64,000 nt of DNA, from assembly GCA_963737155.1 (NCBI GenBank), contig CAVTRN010000001.1, positions 1,248,001 through 1,312,000 on the forward strand. The letters run 5' to 3'. The DNA is from Nitrospirota bacterium. Lineage in GTDB: Bacteria; Nitrospirota; UBA9217. Made by a program: the position numbers and the translations under genes. The notes beneath the pieces are model-generated. The model did no database searches. It had not been told where the DNA came from and was given only the letters and a program-made list of their open reading frames with translations. Of this stretch, positions 1,258 through 7,913 are shown piece by piece (position 1 is the stretch's first letter; each line of letters opens with the position of its first letter).

Positions 1258-1913
1258 TTTTCTCGACCGATGATCTCAGCAAGCAGCAACGAGAGCATAT
1301 CGCAGAACAATGCGTACTGACAATTTTGTCAATTCAACTTAAACAATGCGGGATAGATATTCATGAGTTATTTTCCTTTTCTTTTGCAGTTTTCATATTT
1401 TGAGGCAGATAAACCTTCATTCCGCTGATTCGAAGCATGCAAGGTTGAATTATTTTGTGATATAATGGACAAGGTGATAATCCTCGGATATGTTCCTTCA
1501 TTTACTCGTAGTCGAAGTTTTTTGATTTTATTACTGCTTTTAGAAATTTCCTTTCCTCTGCATTTAGCTTGATAAGATCGCGCAGTACCTTTTTATGCCC
1601 CTTGTAATTAGCAAACGATTTCTTATCAGCTTTCTATCTGAAATCCGCACGCCAGGGCACGCTCACTTGGAGGTGTAAGTACTATATGGACACGGATACG
1701 AAATCATTAAGTTACTAAAAACTATATAAGTAAAGTCTCATTATGCATCGGGAATTATCATTAATAGAGGGGATACAGCAAATTCCATGAGGTGTTACTA
1801 ACGCATGTCGCAATAACTACTAAAAAATTAAAAATCATATACTAAGGTTTGGTTTATACGATGACCATCTCAGATCAGTGCATTTGTTTTGGCAGCTGTT
1901 TTGGCACTATGTC

Positions 1914-1943
1914 TTGACATATTACCGATAATCAGGATACACT
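1914..1943 (+). promoter_or_regulatory. Putative sigma70 promoter of the ceramide operon
   Basis: TTGACA-18 nt-TACACT about 30 nt before the 1974 start. Confidence 0.45.
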
Positions 1944-1973
1944 GTAAGCATATGTGCTGGACTGGGAGGGCGG

Positions 1974-2972
1974 ATGGCGCAAGAGGGGGCTCGACGAGTA
2001 CTGGTTACGGGCGGAACCGGTTTTGTGGGAAGCCATCTTGTTGAACGGCTCCTCCGGAACGGTTATGCGGTAAGCTGCTTGGTGAGGGATCCTCTTCATT
2101 TGCGCTGGCTTGAGGGTATGGATGTGCAACTTGCAGACGGCGACTGTGCTCGGCCCGATTCGCTTGCCGTAGCCGTGCAGGGCGTTTCGGTCGTATTCCA
2201 TTGCGCCGGACTAACCAAGGCAAAACATGCTCGCGAATTTTACCTCGTGAACCATCTCGGCACAAAGAATCTTTTGGAAGCATGCGCACGATATAATCCC
2301 GATATTAAGAAATTTGTACTGGTTTCTAGCCAGGCGGCGGCAGGCCCGAGCCCGGACGGACGACCGGTCAAAGATGACGACACACCGCATCCTGTGTCTG
2401 ATTATGGCAGGAGCAAGCTTCTTGCCGAAGTGGAGACGCTCGGTTATAAAGAACGCCTTCCTGTTGTGATTATCCGGCCATCGAGTGTCTATGGGCCGAG
2501 AGATGCGGATTTTTACGAATTTTTCCGCTGGGCCAGTCATGGCTTGGCTCTCGAGATGACTGGAGGAGATCGATATCTCAACTTGTGCTACGTCGAAGAC
2601 CTGACAGCGGCGCTGCTTTTCTCAGCCGAGCAGAGGACGCAGAGCGGCAGCATATATTTTGTCGCGGAGAACAGGCCCTACTCGTGGTCGGATTTTTGGG
2701 CGATGCTTCTTTCCACTGGCTGCGTGAAGGGACGCACGATTAAAATTCCTTACGGGGTGGCCTACCTGATCGGTCTCGCATCCGAAATGGGGAGCCTGTT
2801 TGCCAAACGGCCGGCGCTTGCGAGTAGGCAGAAGGTGCGGGAAGCCGCACAGAGATATTGGCTTTGCGATGTTGGTAAGATTGAGAATGACCTTCGCTTC
2901 CGGGCGGAGTATTCGCTGCAGAAAGGGCTGGAACGCACATGGCAATGGTACAGAAAAAAGCAATGGCTGTAG
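1974..2972 (+). CDS. Extended SDR NAD-dependent epimerase/reductase; candidate ceramide (3-oxo) reductase
   Basis: TGGTGFVG Rossmann motif, VFHCAG, catalytic YGRSK; overlaps the spt-like gene. Confidence 0.8.
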   Translation: MAQEGARRVLVTGGTGFVGSHLVERLLRNGYAVSCLVRDPLHLRWLEGMDVQLADGDCARPDSLAVAVQGVSVVFHCAGLTKAKHAREFYLVNHLGTKNLLEACARYNPDIKKFVLVSSQAAAGPSPDGRPVKDDDTPHPVSDYGRSKLLAEVETLGYKERLPVVIIRPSSVYGPRDADFYEFFRWASHGLALEMTGGDRYLNLCYVEDLTAALLFSAEQRTQSGSIYFVAENRPYSWSDFWAMLLSTGCVKGRTIKIPYGVAYLIGLASEMGSLFAKRPALASRQKVREAAQRYWLCDVGKIENDLRFRAEYSLQKGLERTWQWYRKKQWL

Positions 2973-4195
2973 TAGGGGAACCGGTTCCGCTTGGGGCTGA
3001 GGGGGCAAAGACGCCGGATTTGTTCGAAAAATGCTGGAAGTTTACGGCCGCGAAAGAAGTTATGGCCGCCGGATTTTATCCATATTTCCATGTCGTGGAA
3101 TCGGAGCAGAGCCCCGAGGTGATCGTTGAGGGCCGGAAGATGATCATGCTTGGGTCGAACAATTATCTCGGGCTTACCAACCATCCGAAGGTGAAGGAAG
3201 CGGCCATTGAAGCAGTGAAGAAATACGGCAGCGGATGTGCGGGTTCGCGATTCCTGAACGGGACCCTCGATATCCATGTGAAGCTCGAGGATAAGCTGGC
3301 GTCTTTCTTTCGCAAGGACGCGGCGCTTGCTTTCCCCACAGGATATCAAACCAACCTCGGGATCATAGCATCCCTCGCGGGCAAGGATGACGTGGTTGTG
3401 ATCGACAAACTCGACCACGCGAGCATCATCGATGCGTGCAGGCTGTCCTTCGCCGAGGTCAAAAAGTTCAAGCACAACGATATGGACAGCCTTGAATATG
3501 TTCTCAAGGAAATCGGGAATCGCGGCAAACTCGTGGTCGTGGACGGCGTGTACAGCATGGAAGGGGACATTGCGCCGCTTCCTGATATCGTCAAGGTCTG
3601 CAAGAAATACGGGGCGCGGCTCATGGTGGACGACGCCCACGGCGTCGGCGTTCTGGGGGGCACCGGCCGCGGGACAGCCGAACATTTCGGCCTCGAGAAG
3701 GAAGTGGACTTGATCATGGGCACCTACAGTAAATCCATGGCGTCCATCGGCGGCTTCGTTGCGGCCGACAAGGATGTGATCCATTACATAAAACACACGT
3801 CCCGTCCGCTTATTTTCTCCGCAAGTCCTCCACCGGCCTCGGTGGCGGCGGTCATCGCAGCGCTGGATATCATTGACCAGGAACCCGAACGAAGGGAGCG
3901 GTTGTGGCAAACCACGCGTAAGATGATGCAGGCGTTCAAACAGATGGGCTACGACACGGGTGTCGCCGAGACGCCGATCGTTCCACTCGTCATTGGTGAG
4001 ATGGAGCGAACGTTCATGATGTGGAAGACCCTGTATGACGAGGGGGTGTTCGTGAACCCCGTGGTCCCGCCGGCCACGCTGTCGGGCCGCTGCCTTATCC
4101 GCACGAGCTTCATGGCGACCCACACCGACGAAATGCTCGACCGGGTGCTCGGCGTAATCGAGAAAGCCGGGAAAAAGCTTGGCGTGATCTCGTAG
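2963..4195 (+). CDS. spt: Serine palmitoyltransferase (PLP alpha-oxoamine synthase family)
   Basis: GSNNYLGL, GSRFLNGT, DHASIID, DDAHG, PLP-lysine motif GTYSKS, IFSAS; directly followed by a bCerS-like GNAT. Start could instead be 2939. Confidence 0.78.
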   Translation: MAVVGEPVPLGAEGAKTPDLFEKCWKFTAAKEVMAAGFYPYFHVVESEQSPEVIVEGRKMIMLGSNNYLGLTNHPKVKEAAIEAVKKYGSGCAGSRFLNGTLDIHVKLEDKLASFFRKDAALAFPTGYQTNLGIIASLAGKDDVVVIDKLDHASIIDACRLSFAEVKKFKHNDMDSLEYVLKEIGNRGKLVVVDGVYSMEGDIAPLPDIVKVCKKYGARLMVDDAHGVGVLGGTGRGTAEHFGLEKEVDLIMGTYSKSMASIGGFVAADKDVIHYIKHTSRPLIFSASPPPASVAAVIAALDIIDQEPERRERLWQTTRKMMQAFKQMGYDTGVAETPIVPLVIGEMERTFMMWKTLYDEGVFVNPVVPPATLSGRCLIRTSFMATHTDEMLDRVLGVIEKAGKKLGVIS

Positions 4196-4212
4196 TCGGC
4201 AAGGAGGAGCTT

Positions 4213-5325
4213 GTGAGCATCGAACAGGTCAACGGTGCGGTCGGTATGAACGAATTCATCCGGTTCCCGTGGAAAGTGTACCCGGGAAACCGCCAGTGGG
4301 TTCCGCCGCTCGTGAGCGATGTAAAATTTGTCTTGAGCGAGAAGAACCCCTTTTTTCGACACGCCGAAGCCGCCTATTTTCTTGCGCGCAAGAACGGAGA
4401 AGCGGTTGGCCGGATCGCGGCGATCATCGACCGCAACCACATCAACATTCACAATGAACAGGCCGGATTTTTCGGCTACTTCGAATGCCTGCCCGACGTT
4501 GCGGTCGCGCAGGAGCTTATCGACGCAGCTTCGGGATGGCTCAAGAAGCGGGATATTTCGATCATGCGGGGGCCCATGAACCCGTCTACGAACGACGAGT
4601 GCGGGTTCCTTCTTGAGGGGTTCGATTCCCCCCCCATGATCATGATGACCTATACGCCCGCCTATTATCTCGACTACATGGATCGCTGCGGTCTAGTCAA
4701 GGCCAAAGATCTCTTTGCCTACCTATCCATCATCAAAGACGTCTCTGCAGCGCCGAGGCTTGAAAAGCTGGCATCAGCCGTCAAAGAGCGCGTCCCCGGG
4801 CTTGTTGTGCGTCCGGCCAACATGAAGAATTTTCGCAAAGAGTTGGAAGCGGTAAAGGACATTTATAATTCCGCGTGGGGCCACAACTGGGGTTTCGTAC
4901 CCATGACGAATGAGGAAATAGATTCCATGGCGAAACGGTTGAAGCCGCTCATCGTGCCGGAGCTGCTCATCATGGCCGAGGTGGACGACAGGCCCGCGGG
5001 ATTTTTCATGGCTGTGCCCGACTACAACCAGGTCATGAGCAGGATCAACGGCAGGCTCGGCCCCCTCGAACTCGTCAAATTTCTCTGGTATTCGAGGAAG
5101 ATATCAGATATTCGCGTGCTCACCTTAGGCGTCAAAGAAGAGTTTCGGAAAAAAGGCATCGAGGGGCTGCTCTATCTTGAGTCGTTCAAAGCGGCGATGC
5201 GCAGGGGCTATGAGCGCGCTGAGATGTCCTGGGTTCTGGAGGACAATGCCCCGATGCGCAAAGGCTGTGAACTCATGGGTGGGAAGCTGTACAAGAAGTA
5301 CCGGATCTATGAGAAGGGCATTTGA
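4213..5325 (+). CDS. bcerS: GNAT-fold bacterial ceramide synthase-like protein
   Basis: 370 aa with FIRFPWKVY...WVPPL, GRIAAI, GFFGYFEC, MRGPMNPSTNDECGFLLEGF, NWGFVPMT, SWVLEDN and YKKYRIY, which are motifs of the bCerS family; adjacent to spt. Confidence 0.78.
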   Translation: MSIEQVNGAVGMNEFIRFPWKVYPGNRQWVPPLVSDVKFVLSEKNPFFRHAEAAYFLARKNGEAVGRIAAIIDRNHINIHNEQAGFFGYFECLPDVAVAQELIDAASGWLKKRDISIMRGPMNPSTNDECGFLLEGFDSPPMIMMTYTPAYYLDYMDRCGLVKAKDLFAYLSIIKDVSAAPRLEKLASAVKERVPGLVVRPANMKNFRKELEAVKDIYNSAWGHNWGFVPMTNEEIDSMAKRLKPLIVPELLIMAEVDDRPAGFFMAVPDYNQVMSRINGRLGPLELVKFLWYSRKISDIRVLTLGVKEEFRKKGIEGLLYLESFKAAMRRGYERAEMSWVLEDNAPMRKGCELMGGKLYKKYRIYEKGI

Positions 5326-5364
5326 CGTTTATCCGCATCAACGGAGACATGCATGCCGAATGCA

Positions 5365-6264
5365 TCAACGGGACTGCTGGACTTGGCCGCCCTTCCGGGC
5401 AATGCGTGAGAGTGCCTCGAACAGTATAGGTGCCAGATAAACGGTCAAAATCGTCAAGGCGATTCCCGCGATGACATCGATAACGTAATGATATCGAAGA
5501 TACACGGTCGAGAAGATCAGTCCCGCCACTACCGGAATTAATCCCGTAAAAAGTCTTTTCTCCTTTTCTTTCCACGCATAATAGAGACTCATGAGCGAAA
5601 CAGCTGTATGGCCGCTTGGGAATGCATCGGTCTTATTTTTTTCCAGACCGTTCAGAGCACCCTGAATCTTTTCGATGAACGGGGGAATCTGCAGGCCCTT
5701 GGTCTGGAGATCAACGAGCGTAAAGCGGGGCCCGACTGCGGGAACGATCAGGTAGCCGATATAGGAAAGATAAAAGCAGAGCAGGATGCCGAATAGGACC
5801 TCTTCGAATTCCCCGAACCTGCCCCTGGCAATGAGCACGGTGCCGACCGAGATGGGGATGAAAAAATAACTGATGTAGGCGAACTGGAGAAGAGTCGAAA
5901 GAATCGGGCTGATCAGCTGTTCCATCCATACTGTCGGGTGAACGCCGAAGAGCGCATGATCGATAGAGATGAGATAAGAGTCGAATGTCGTCCTATGAAT
6001 GCTGGCGATGAGTTTCCCCAGACTGTTAAAAATAGTGGAAATTGTTATCACTGTCACGGCAACCGAAAGGTAGAAACCCTTTTTTACCGGTCCTACCCTC
6101 GTGCGGTATACGGCAACCGCCAGGATCGCAACCACCAGCACCGTGTACGTAGCGAGAAGTCCGGCCCACGATGGATTCATAGGCGCGGAAAAAACCGCAA
6201 GACCTGAGAACAGGAAAAGAAAAAAAAGCGTCAGCAGATCGGAGGGCCTCAAGACGAAGTGCAT
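5365..6264 (-). CDS. PAP2-superfamily membrane protein of the Aur1/IPC-synthase-like (PAP2_3) type
   Basis: Multi-pass membrane protein with VPAVGPRF, DAFPSGH and STVYLRYHYVIDVIAG motifs. Confidence 0.8.
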   Translation of the reverse strand: MHFVLRPSDLLTLFFLFLFSGLAVFSAPMNPSWAGLLATYTVLVVAILAVAVYRTRVGPVKKGFYLSVAVTVITISTIFNSLGKLIASIHRTTFDSYLISIDHALFGVHPTVWMEQLISPILSTLLQFAYISYFFIPISVGTVLIARGRFGEFEEVLFGILLCFYLSYIGYLIVPAVGPRFTLVDLQTKGLQIPPFIEKIQGALNGLEKNKTDAFPSGHTAVSLMSLYYAWKEKEKRLFTGLIPVVAGLIFSTVYLRYHYVIDVIAGIALTILTVYLAPILFEALSRIARKGGQVQQSR

Positions 6265-6371
6265 AGCGATATATACACTACCTTTGGCGAAATTGCAATC
6301 GTAACATCCATTTCCGGCTGACTATATGTCTTTAGCATAGACCAAGATGGAGCGCGATAAAAACAGCAAGA

Positions 6372-7115
6372 TCAGTAGAGCTTATGGCAGGGAACCCCCG
6401 CCTTTTCAAAAGTAGCCTTCAATTCCTCGCCTTTTTCAAGGAAGAAATCCTCATCCAGTGCCCATGACATCCCGTGTTCTTTATATGCCTGGTCAGCATA
6501 ATGATAATTGTACCGGTCGATCAATACATGGTCCACCGTGCCCTTCAGCAAGTCCACAAGCCCGTCAGCATGGGGAAGCAGGGGCGCAATCATAACAAAG
6601 GTTTTTATCCCTTCTGAATGAAGAATTCCCAATGCCTCGATACGCTTAGCTATGGGCGGGGCGCCGGGTTCGAATATCCTCCGCACCCTCTCATCCGCAG
6701 TGGTTATGGTGAACCCGGCCTCAACGTCCGTTGATCTCTTCAGGATCGCAATATCCCGCAGGACCAACGGGGATTTTGTCTGGATCGTGACCGGCCATGC
6801 CTGTTTAACGAGAATTTCGAGGCATCTCCTGGTGAGCATATACTTCTTTTCCAGGGGTTGATATGCATCACACACCCCGCTTATCCAGACCCTGCCCTTG
6901 TGCTTTTTCTTCACCTCCTGGGACAAGAGATCGGCCGCATTTATTTTTACATCGACGAATGCTCCCCATGGTTCCGAGTGACCGGTAAATCTCCTCATGA
7001 ACTTAGCGTAGCAGTAAAGGCAACGATGCTGACATCCGACATAGGCATTCAAGGCATAGTCATAGACCTGAGATTTCGAGAGGATGGTTTTTGCTTCAAT
7101 CTCTTTGACGATCAT
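6372..7115 (-). CDS. Radical SAM protein, spore-photoproduct-lyase-like family
   Basis: NAYVGCQHRCLYCYA (CxxxCxxC), DAYQPLE, TKSPLVLRD; start placed at MIVKEI. Confidence 0.85.
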   Translation of the reverse strand: MIVKEIEAKTILSKSQVYDYALNAYVGCQHRCLYCYAKFMRRFTGHSEPWGAFVDVKINAADLLSQEVKKKHKGRVWISGVCDAYQPLEKKYMLTRRCLEILVKQAWPVTIQTKSPLVLRDIAILKRSTDVEAGFTITTADERVRRIFEPGAPPIAKRIEALGILHSEGIKTFVMIAPLLPHADGLVDLLKGTVDHVLIDRYNYHYADQAYKEHGMSWALDEDFFLEKGEELKATFEKAGVPCHKLY

Positions 7116-7913
7116 GTGTCCATTATACAGCAGGAACACGTTGGGAGAAAGGTCCATCAGAATGATGCGGATGAAAGTGTTAGCCATCGGCATAGCTCTT
7201 GAACATAGACCTGCCGCCTTTTTTAAACAGCACGCAAGGCCTTTGAACTATGTGATATTTGTAGTTCCGGCGCTTGACGGAGATGATGTATGTTACAACT
7301 CTGATGAGCTTTCTATGAAGGCAGTCGCAATTCGCATCTTTGAGGGAGTCCACTTACAGCAAAAAATGCGAGATGGAAAGCATTGATTTCAATCGAGGGA
7401 ACGTTTTTTAGATTTTTAAAACAGGAGCATTATCACCGGCAGACGAAAAGAGGACGATTTCAGTAATCGCGTCCTCTCTGTGAGATGAAAAAAGACGCAC
7501 ATCCATAACGAGTATCGTCTCTGACCCTACTTTACTTCTCTATCTGGTATTCGAAGTAATAGAAATTGGGCCGACATCGGTACTCACTTCTATAGGACCT
7601 CCTGTCATGATCGAAAGGAAACATATAACATTTACACATTTAAAAGAAATCAAGAAGGCTTCCCCGTAAAAATTAAAATGCAGAATCAATAAAGATCAAA
7701 ATCGATACCTATCACCCCCTCATTGACATCGTATCCAAATCCGTTATCGTTTACATGCACTACTGATTCGCCGATCTGGCATAACACCGAATCGCCTTCT
7801 AACAACGAGCAATGCGTCATGCGGATACTACACAAAACAATGGCAGGCCCCGCTGCAGCCTGCCTAAGCGTTTGAGCAACATGAAAGTTCGAGAATCCTT
7901 GCTCACGAATCAA

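Follow-up and report, generated by a model that had tools for sequence, protein, structure and literature searches.

A candidate Aur1-like ceramide phosphotransferase encoded beside ceramide-synthesis genes in a Nitrospirota bacterium

The described systems closest to the gene reported here are the inositol-phosphorylceramide (IPC) synthase Aur1 of yeast, the bacterial Aur1 homologue BT_1522, and the sphingomyelin synthase (SMS) family, in which SMSr makes ceramide-phosphoethanolamine (CPE) from phosphatidylethanolamine (PE). Aur1 is described as having a split transmembrane (TM) helix 4, a 15-residue TM6, the long loops EL2 and EL3, and a C3 histidine on the short loop EL4 (PMC13133130). Its catalytic triad is H255/H294/D298 (PMC12122681; PMC13133130), and both termini are cytosolic with the active site being luminal (PMC12122681). 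BT_1522 of Bacteroides thetaiotaomicron was found by its homology to AUR1, and its knockout loses phosphoinositol-dihydroceramide (PI-DHC), which complementation restores, according to Heaver et al. (2022; PMC9246714). Bacterial genes have already been assigned to this inositol route of Bacteroides, to ceramide synthesis itself, and to the kinase-based route of Caulobacter, in which ceramide-phosphoglycerate is reported to be made via CpgB and other genes (PMC10331486; PMC11324152). Ding et al. (2024) extended the ceramide-synthesis proteins Spt, bCerS, and CerR to approximately 40 phyla; PAP2, phosphoethanolamine, and Nitrospirota are not mentioned in the accessible text of that study. Here, we describe a gene in a 64,000-nucleotide (nt) stretch of a Nitrospirota bacterium (assembly GCA_963737155.1, contig CAVTRN010000001.1, positions 1,248,001 to 1,312,000), the whole of which is hereafter called the window. 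The open reading frame (ORF) at window positions 5365..6264 on the minus strand converges on a ceramide-synthesis gene cluster and encodes a candidate PAP2_3/Aur1-like lipid phosphotransferase of 299 amino acids (ATG start, eight predicted TM helices), which we call P0001 and whose residue numbers are used below. A preliminary description of this DNA had proposed a eukaryote-like ceramide phosphotransferase, and this core reading as an Aur1/SMS-like enzyme is supported by the fold, the alignment of the active site, the synteny, and the co-occurrence with bCerS, apart from an IPC product. By analogy with the characterized enzymes, we regard P0001 as a likely candidate for a ceramide phosphotransferase that depends on PE or phosphatidylglycerol (PG).

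The structure of P0001 was modelled with AlphaFold2 from an alignment of 57 sequences, namely P0001 and 56 mostly full-length family members (28-80% identical). The mean predicted local distance difference test score (pLDDT) was 95.9 and the predicted TM-score (pTM) 0.93, with 279 of the 299 residues at pLDDT ≥90. DSSP assigned helices to residues 7-25, 33-56, 60-89, 120-134/136-146 (kinked), 150-173, 218-232 (short), 236-255, and 261-298 of the model, and short helices were present in two long loops (95-117 and 179-207). Foldseek retrieved two matches in PDB at E≤0.001, both of which were yeast Aur1 (9vj4_A, E-value 7.5e-6, TM-score 0.60/0.63 over 284 columns; 9ivc_A, 3.4e-5), while the E-values beyond Aur1 were 0.024 for PgpB and 0.048 for SMSr. 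VIA-align, run on the top 998 chains of Foldseek, scored Aur1 at Z 18.7 with 258 residues aligned (root-mean-square deviation 4.1; model 5-284 against Aur1 44-319) and the second Aur1 chain at Z 17.5. Lower scores were obtained for LpxE (12.6; 162 residues aligned, model 92-281), Bacillus subtilis PgpB (11.8), and G6PC1 (11.7). In the comparison with Aur1 and SMS suggested in the preliminary description, SMSr (8ijq_A) gave Z 11.6 (root-mean-square deviation 5.1, 205 residues aligned), which is level with the phosphatases and far under Aur1. Since the match to Aur1 spans 258 residues and the phosphatases share the five-helix core only, the entire protein, including its two N-terminal helices, appears to be Aur1-like. 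Altogether, the model predicts the eight-helix architecture of Aur1 (PDB 9vj4, 9vj3, and 9ivc) with the catalytic triad in place, as well as two long non-cytoplasmic loops, a kinked TM4, and a short TM6. Membership of P0001 in the LPT/PAP2 superfamily is clear from the C2 and C3 motifs, which are invariant in all 57 members, and from the core Z scores of 11-12.6 to LpxE, PgpB, and G6PC1.

At the sequence level, P0001 and Aur1 are just 16-18% identical. P0001 alone found a sole match among the PDB sequences, B. subtilis PgpB (E 0.0025), and a profile of the family was required to reach Aur1. The best PDB matches of the profile were the Aur1 chains 9vj3 (E 5e-7, 32.4 bits) and 9ivc (7e-7), and the alignment covered profile positions 10-279 and Aur1 43-314, whereas PgpB, LpxE, and acid phosphatases were aligned over 210-289 only. 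In the profile alignment, H219, H259, and D263 of P0001 coincide with H255, H294, and D298 of Aur1, and the P-A-V-G-P-R-F region is aligned to FPAAPPWY. The two proteins have in common the H-H-D triad, the P-A-x-x-P and S-T-x-Y-L-x-x-H-Y-x-x-D motifs, and the lack of the C1 motif. The Aur1 strings quoted in the preliminary description, GAFPSLH and STMYLTHHYFVD, were both seen in the HMMER alignment to the PDB Aur1 chains. P0001 differs from Aur1 in bearing D213 six residues ahead of the C2 histidine, where Aur1 has Gly, and in R180 and R257, which are conserved in the P0001 family but not in Aur1. The conserved residues also differ in the long loop thought to set the head-group choice of Aur1 (PMC12122681). 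Furthermore, no Kei1-like gene is conserved beside the P0001 gene, and the host genome lacks the inositol pathway (see below).

The active-site motifs lie in a catalytic block at residues 213-267 (window 5464..5628, minus strand), comprising a C2/SMS-D3-like part, D213-x3-S217-G-H219-T, and a C3/SMS-D4-like part, S252-T-x3-R257-Y-H259-x3-D263-V. Upstream of the block, P-A-V-G-P-R-F (residues 175-181; window 5722..5742, minus strand) is situated at the end of TM5 and the start of a long, predictedly periplasmic loop. All three motifs listed in the preliminary description are present: P-A-x-G-P as P-A-V-G-P at 175-179 (window 5728-5742), AFPSGH at 214-219 (within DAFPSGHT, 213-220), and STVYLRYHYVIDVIAG at 252-267, which includes HYVIDV at 259-264. 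D102, P175, P179, P216, S217, H219, H259, and D263 are invariant in 57/57 aligned members, and the residues conserved in ≥90% of them include D95, G178 (53/57), E208, D213 (55/57), T253, and R257 (54/57); R180 is found in 49/57. No K-x6-R-P string occurs in P0001, as the preliminary description had noted for the motif KxxxxxxRP. The phosphatase motifs are K-x6-RP for C1 and S-R-x5-H for C3 (attributed to Sigal 2005). The C1 motif and the C3 arginine that mark PgpB/LpxE-type phosphatases are both missing from P0001: the position of the C3 arginine is occupied by threonine (T253) in 54 of the 57 members, and K-x6-RP occurs in a single member, where it lies C-terminally at residue 276, away from the C1 position. 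Among the PAP2 paralogues of the same genome, K-x6-RP was found in two identical ones only, and the rest were too divergent for regular expressions, so no weight is given to this comparison.

The same motifs bring P0001 close to the SMS family. Residues 213-220 and 259-264 match the D3 and D4 patterns of SMS (attributed to Huitema 2004), D-x3-S-G-H-T and H-Y-x-x-D-V. Among the Pfam models, P0001 matched PAP2_3 with 84.6 bits (cut-off 27), PAP2 with 46.5 bits, and PAP2_C, to which SMS belongs, with 29.7 bits (cut-off 27); PAP2_3 was matched by 57/57 members and PAP2_C by 47/57 (E≤1e-3). By sequence, P0001 thus appears to carry the motifs and the domain that characterize the SMS family. The resemblance to SMSr may extend to D213. 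SMSr is reported to have an additional catalytic residue, D295, beside H301/H344/D348, which is not conserved in Aur1, LpxE, G6PC1, or PgpB (PMC13133130). The spacing of six between D213 and H219 equals that between D295 and H301, this being a comparison of numbering and not a residue-level alignment, and no Asp occupies the D213 position in Aur1 or the PgpBs in the profile alignments. We regard D213 as the possible counterpart of D295 as a lead and not a result. SMSr has six helices as opposed to the eight of P0001.

The best NCBIfam model for P0001 was NF052609, the model of BT_1522-type PI-DHC synthase (37.5 bits, E 1.8e-9, residues 103-277). This score is far below the equivalog cut-off of 480 bits. 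NF052609 was also the best model for 40 of the 57 family members at E≤1e-3 (best member E 1.5e-11), and BT_1522, which acts on (dihydro)ceramide, is likewise an Aur1 homologue from a bacterium. On the other hand, BT_1522 resides in an inositol-lipid cluster with inositol-1-phosphate synthase (MIPS) and phosphatidylinositol-phosphate (PIP) synthase (PMC9246714), whereas the gene of P0001 accompanies cerR-spt-bCerS. The preliminary description had suspected an undescribed system here. As a kind of enzyme it is known, BT_1522 being a characterized bacterial Aur1 homologue; what is new is a distinct, uncharacterized subfamily in bCerS-type bacteria, as the distance from the NF052609 cut-off indicates. 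A literature search, with most subscription journals outside its scope, recovered nothing on this subfamily and no bacterial gene for a synthase of CPE or ceramide-phosphoglycerol (CPG).

The orientation of P0001 in the membrane was examined with Kyte-Doolittle profiles and charge counts. The loops rich in K/R (53-63, 147-155, and 233-237) lie on one side together with the C-terminus, and the motif-bearing loops 87-117, 175-217, and 256-263 are on the opposite side. Because of the positive-inside rule and the analogy with Aur1, we infer that the active site faces the periplasm. A periplasmic active site fits the report that CerR of Caulobacter, the final enzyme of ceramide synthesis, is periplasmic (PMC11087976).

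The gene of P0001 is tightly associated with bCerS in the order to which the window belongs (64 species genomes, one family). P0001 found matches in 46 genomes (E≤1e-10) and the bCerS-like protein of the window in 48. The PAP2 and bCerS matches shared a contig in 43 of the 46 carriers, and in 42 of these the two genes were convergent with <1 kb between them. As exceptions, the pair is 2.7 kb apart on one strand in G033, the genes are on separate short contigs in G001 and G026, and no bCerS was found in G063, where the PAP2 match begins at contig base 41. The PAP2 gene was absent from 18 genomes, of which 15 were also without a bCerS match; of the others, G010 had weak matches (23-26% identity), and G024 and G043 had bCerS fragments covering query residues 1-149 and 1-340, respectively. 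The presence and absence are mixed within six genera (g1, g8, g11, g12, g14, and g18), and thus the pair has been gained or lost jointly several times.

Beyond the order, a pattern scan with one genome per species confirmed 531 loci, of which the best 80 were analyzed. These belong to Nitrospirota, Acidobacteriota, Methylomirabilota, Calditrichota, Planctomycetota, 'delta proteobacteria', and others, and at least one sphingolipid gene was detected in the flank of 33 of the 80 by tblastn with the window proteins (bCerS in 27, Spt in 23). A quick phylogeny built with IQ-TREE from the 80 proteins and P0001 (81 in total) recovered three groups, to all of which the motif blocks are common. P0001 was placed in a clade of 27 sequences with an SH-aLRT support of 90.9, and the ceramide cluster was adjacent in 25 of them; the remaining two loci, L052 and L074, end within 100 nt past the gene. 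The sister clade comprised 34 Nitrospirota sequences (support 100) with no sphingolipid gene within 8 kb, their sole common neighbour being a gene for a 152-aa protein in 28 of the 34 loci. The third group (19 sequences) was mixed in context. Clustering of the ORFs in the 25 clade loci other than L052 and L074 found bCerS (25), PAP2 (25), Spt (22), and CerR (22) to be conserved, and the remaining large clusters were antisense shadows of those four genes. Neither a CDP-alcohol-type nor a kinase gene was conserved in this module, nor was a fifth, Kei1-like gene conserved across the 25 loci, no search having been made for a partner encoded elsewhere. The PAP2 gene is co-directional with bCerS in L084, where the two overlap, and in L082. 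The preliminary description had named a lack of conserved synteny as one part of what would speak against its proposal; the 42 convergent pairs among the 46 carriers of the order and the adjacency in all 25 flanked loci of the clade show the reverse.

The two genes also co-occur in genomes in which they are not linked. A bCerS gene was found elsewhere in 8 of 9 genomes with an unlinked PAP2 copy: all five of the sister-clade genomes tested carry a homologue with 46-49% identity, as do three of the four unlinked genomes of the third group, with none found in a 1.2-Mb metagenome-assembled genome (MAG) of Aquificota. We then counted both genes in 301 genomes, each ≥90% complete, sampled evenly from the window's own phylum, with thresholds of E≤1e-25 for PAP2 and E≤1e-40 for bCerS. 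PAP2 was detected in 117 genomes and bCerS in 144; 115 genomes possessed both, two (G252 and G276) PAP2 only, 29 bCerS only, and 155 neither. The co-occurrence of PAP2_3 homologues with spt-bcerS, which the preliminary description had put forward as a check, is borne out for bCerS by 115 of the 117 carriers. In a second phylum, that of locus L077 (titled Acidobacteriota; 201 genomes), 31 genomes matched P0001 at E≤1e-25, 54 matched bCerS, and 16 matched both. All 14 genomes with P0001 matches at E≤1e-38, a boundary chosen after the data were seen, possess bCerS (13/13 without the unpublished genome G359), and bCerS accompanied two of the 17 weaker matches. This suggests that the weaker matches represent a PAP2_3 subfamily that is more remote and serves a different role.

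The gene content of the genome, which is 100% complete, bears on the donor of the head group. No inositol-1-phosphate synthase (Inos-1-P_synth) domain was detected in it, while the control search was positive for 6 of the 14 reference genomes, B. thetaiotaomicron among them. The four CDP-alcohol transferases were assigned to PgsA (171.6 bits, cut-off 109.1), a PgsA/ClsA-like protein (106.2 bits), and two PssA, and none was of the grade of a PIP or phosphatidylinositol (PI) synthase (best score 27.9 against a cut-off of 170). By this genomic proxy, the PI donor of an Aur1-type IPC synthase appears to be lacking. Psd and DgkA are encoded. Since Psd, PssA, and PgsA are encoded and no inositol pathway was found, PE and PG are the donors available, and the product is likely CPE or CPG, and not IPC. 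Of the IPC-, CPE-, and CPG-type products that the preliminary description had entertained, the pathway content thus favours the latter two and speaks against the first.

Based on these data, we propose the following mechanism. P0001 would be a lipid phosphotransferase integral to the inner membrane, belonging to the LPT/PAP2 superfamily and having an Aur1 scaffold. It would take the phospho-head group of an abundant glycerophospholipid and attach it to the C1-hydroxyl of ceramide, with the release of diacylglycerol (DAG). The acceptor ceramide would be supplied by the neighbouring Spt, bCerS, and CerR, the donor would most likely be PE or else PG, and the product would be CPE or CPG. In Aur1/SMS-type chemistry, H259, activated by D263, would attack the phosphodiester of the donor, H219 and possibly D213 would assist the transfer to ceramide, and the released DAG would be recycled by DgkA.

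Among the alternatives, the main rival is a lipid phosphate phosphatase linked to sphingolipid synthesis, which would act on ceramide-1-phosphate, a sphingoid-base phosphate, or a phosphorylated head-group intermediate, in parallel to PgpA and PgpB, which finish PG or PI synthesis. We regard it as unlikely, albeit as a conceivable role. LpxE, PgpB, and G6PC1 (Z 11-12.6) have the same PAP2 triad and LPT core, the arginines R180 and R257 are conserved, and such a role would account for the coupling with bCerS too. Nevertheless, the C1 motif is missing and the C3 arginine replaced, and the likeness to the phosphatases (PDB 5jki, 4px7, and 6ebu) is confined to the five-helix LPT core, the C2 and C3 histidines, and the aspartate; the two extra N-terminal helices and the long loops are shared with Aur1 only, with the full eight-helix architecture being matched at Z 18.7 as opposed to ≤12.6. 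In addition, the module contains no conserved CDP-alcohol-type or kinase gene, and no DAGK_cat domain above the cut-off was detected in the genome (best 21.2 against 23.6). CpgB has the GGDG lipid-kinase fold (PMC10331486), and a CpgB-type kinase that would produce ceramide-1-phosphate is not evident in the genome, which weakens a role as a ceramide-1-phosphate phosphatase. A phospholipase-C-like hydrolase or other remodeller, which would release DAG from PE or PG or use a non-ceramide acceptor, seems improbable. The SMS-like D-x3-SGHT and HYxxDV motifs, a PAP2_C score barely over the cut-off, and the reported hydrolysis of PE by SMSr without ceramide (PMC7988496; PMC12594915) would agree with it, but the carriers are nearly all bCerS-positive (the 115 of 117 and 14 of 14 given above), and the adjacency to ceramide genes is kept across several phyla. 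We consider it very improbable that P0001 is a strict IPC synthase of the Aur1/BT_1522 type with a PI donor. Aur1 is the nearest solved structure and the PI-DHC synthase model the best NCBIfam match, yet that match is far under its cut-off, neither a MIPS domain nor a PIP synthase was found in a complete genome, and the long head-group loop carries conserved residues other than those of Aur1; this candidate was rejected on the inositol pathway and the NF052609 score. The least probable of the alternatives is a housekeeping PAP2 phosphatase for phosphatidylglycerophosphate, undecaprenyl pyrophosphate, or lipid A that neighbours the ceramide genes by chance. The public annotation ('phosphatase PAP2 family protein') and weak NCBIfam matches to the UppP, LpxE, and PgpB models, which cover the C2-C3 region only, favour it; it was rejected in view of the synteny and co-occurrence, including the joint loss of both genes in several genera of the order, the missing C1 motif, and at least five other PAP2 paralogues of the genome that are available for housekeeping phosphatase roles.

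Several points weigh against the assignment of P0001 as a ceramide phosphotransferase. The H-H-D triad and the LPT core are common to true phosphatases, in which the arginines of C1 and C3 bind the phosphomonoester, as R180 and R257 near the catalytic motifs of P0001 could do. In the model comparison, SMSr is structurally no nearer than the phosphatases. The margin of the family profile is small (32.4 bits for Aur1 against 30.2 bits for PgpB), with a large composition bias in the Aur1 alignment, and this sequence evidence by itself is modest. In this genome, the gene converges on the ceramide operon and is hence not co-transcribed with it, and the identity of the partner gene as bCerS rests on position and fold, which makes it a candidate. 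As to the co-occurrence counts, related genomes are not independent samples, 15 of the 31 second-phylum matches at E≤1e-25 are without bCerS, and the stricter boundary is post hoc. Furthermore, the PAP2 gene is lacking in 29 of the 144 bCerS-positive genomes of the own phylum and in 38 of the 54 of the second phylum. Because many sphingolipid-capable genomes are without it, the PAP2 gene appears to be an optional add-on, as is expected of a head-group enzyme. Some of the 'bCerS only' genomes may have just a paralogue of bCerS, as nine bCerS-positive, PAP2-negative genomes of family f16 are explained by matches of 37-39% identity, a level like that of the paralogue in the window's genome (see below).

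If P0001 is a ceramide phosphotransferase, the implications would reach beyond the single locus. We tentatively suggest, as a possibility, that this large and phylum-spanning family provides bCerS-type bacteria with the ceramide phosphotransferase, dependent on PE (or PG), that has so far been missing; the enzyme would be independent of Kei1, combine SMS motifs with an Aur1 scaffold, and work in the periplasmic leaflet. Such a family would link the Aur1 and SMS families of eukaryotes and may resemble their common, prokaryotic-type ancestor. The production of phosphosphingolipids could then be predicted from the genomes of Nitrospirota, Acidobacteriota, Desulfobacterota-like bacteria, and other phyla, and the Aur1/SMS reaction would gain a small, partner-free bacterial model. 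Soil and sediment metagenomes are rich in members of this family, which is nearly confined to bCerS-positive genomes and, judged from the models, is a good candidate for the ceramide head-group enzyme of many uncultured bacteria.

The family is large in sequence databases. A word-indexed protein search gave 4137 matches at E≤1e-3 among 8000 scored candidates, and the best 120 of these matches, all being metagenome or MAG proteins, were 71-82% identical to P0001. Where names were given, they read 'phosphatase PAP2 family protein', 'membrane-associated phospholipid phosphatase', or 'hypothetical protein', and the same sorts of names were obtained in a second search with a divergent member from locus L058. 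An exhaustive search of the representatives of 50%-identity clusters gave 3198 matches at E≤1e-3, 1589 at ≤1e-10, and 185 at ≤1e-30. With these thousands of homologues and the PAP2_3 score, a chance ORF was rejected. No RNA run was listed for window 1900-6400, and nine DNA runs from soil and peat metagenomes (4 studies) covered it partly.

The ceramide genes on which the P0001 gene converges are all on the plus strand. A CerR-like NAD-dependent epimerase/reductase of the SDR family (332 aa; Pfam Epimerase 6.2e-37) is encoded at 1974..2972, and its end overlaps by 34 nt with the start of a gene for a serine palmitoyltransferase-like alpha-oxoamine synthase (418 aa; 2939..4195). The best NCBIfam matches of the latter were the Spt models NF047600 (569.9 bits, cut-off 640) and NF047599 (433.5 bits, cut-off 500). 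The third gene (4213..5325) encodes a bCerS-like GNAT acyltransferase of 370 aa (Acetyltransf_1 8.2e-8, no NCBIfam match). We regard it as a bCerS candidate by its position in the conserved cerR-spt-GNAT cluster and by its fold, and not by comparison with a reference bCerS; the protein served as the partner query in the synteny and co-occurrence analyses. The stop codons of this gene and the PAP2 gene are separated by 39 nt (5326..5364), in agreement with the approximately 40 nt of the preliminary description, and no terminator-like hairpin was detected in this gap (fold z 0.05). The G+C content is 54-58% in the three ceramide genes, approximately 50% in the PAP2 gene, and 49.5% in the genome. 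On the other side, 107 nt separate the PAP2 gene from an upstream radical SAM gene that is likewise on the minus strand (6372-7193), and no promoter-like site was found in this 107-nt region. The best NCBIfam match of the radical SAM gene, 'mobile pair protein B' (TIGR04470), scored 148.7 bits where the cut-off is 410. The radical SAM gene never adjoins the PAP2 gene in the best 80 of the 531 related loci, and it is thus probably unrelated. No Rfam match was found within the window.

In 31 of 40 examined intervals between bCerS and PAP2 in the order, a conserved polytopic membrane protein of approximately 195 aa is encoded on the bCerS strand (for example in L099-L131, which are relatives in the order, L015:8841-9434, and L018). 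The window and its six closest relatives lack this protein in the interval, and a 62%-identical copy is present elsewhere in the window's genome (G000:C2:2240533-2240967). One of the 15 copies matched CTP_transf_1, below the threshold, and nothing relevant was found in NCBIfam or in a profile search of PDB. As a speculation, a DAG kinase at this position would fit the release of DAG by the transferase. The DgkA match of the genome (G000:C2:2150325-2150987) directly adjoins another PAP2 paralogue on the same strand, and the two may be a fused or coupled pair of DAG kinase and phosphatase.

Additional copies of the ceramide genes were noticed. A paralogue with 39% identity to the bCerS-like protein is encoded at G000:C2:1546470-1547558 (L098:6443-7564) and neighboured by a gene of the AsmA family as well as several ORFs that have no Pfam match. 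Window 2835-5553 (2719 bp) is duplicated in inverted orientation with 99.6% identity on the other contig (G000:C2:2926658-2929374), and the segment comprises spt and bCerS in full, between the 3' end of cerR on one side and the final 189 nt of PAP2 on the other. The second copy consists of an intact spt-bCerS pair with a truncated cerR and a PAP2 stub, flanked by genes for PagL-like, peptidase M15, and GNAT proteins, with no transposase seen; it may have arisen by segmental duplication in the recent past or be an artefact of the assembly. In the order, G002 has a second, decayed pair (G002:C1:58960-61620), in which PAP2 is in two pieces and bCerS has four in-frame stops, and the bCerS match is split or interrupted by stops beside an intact PAP2 match in G003, G014, G047, and G049. 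These decayed or split bCerS copies may be pseudogenes or indel errors in assemblies of few contigs.

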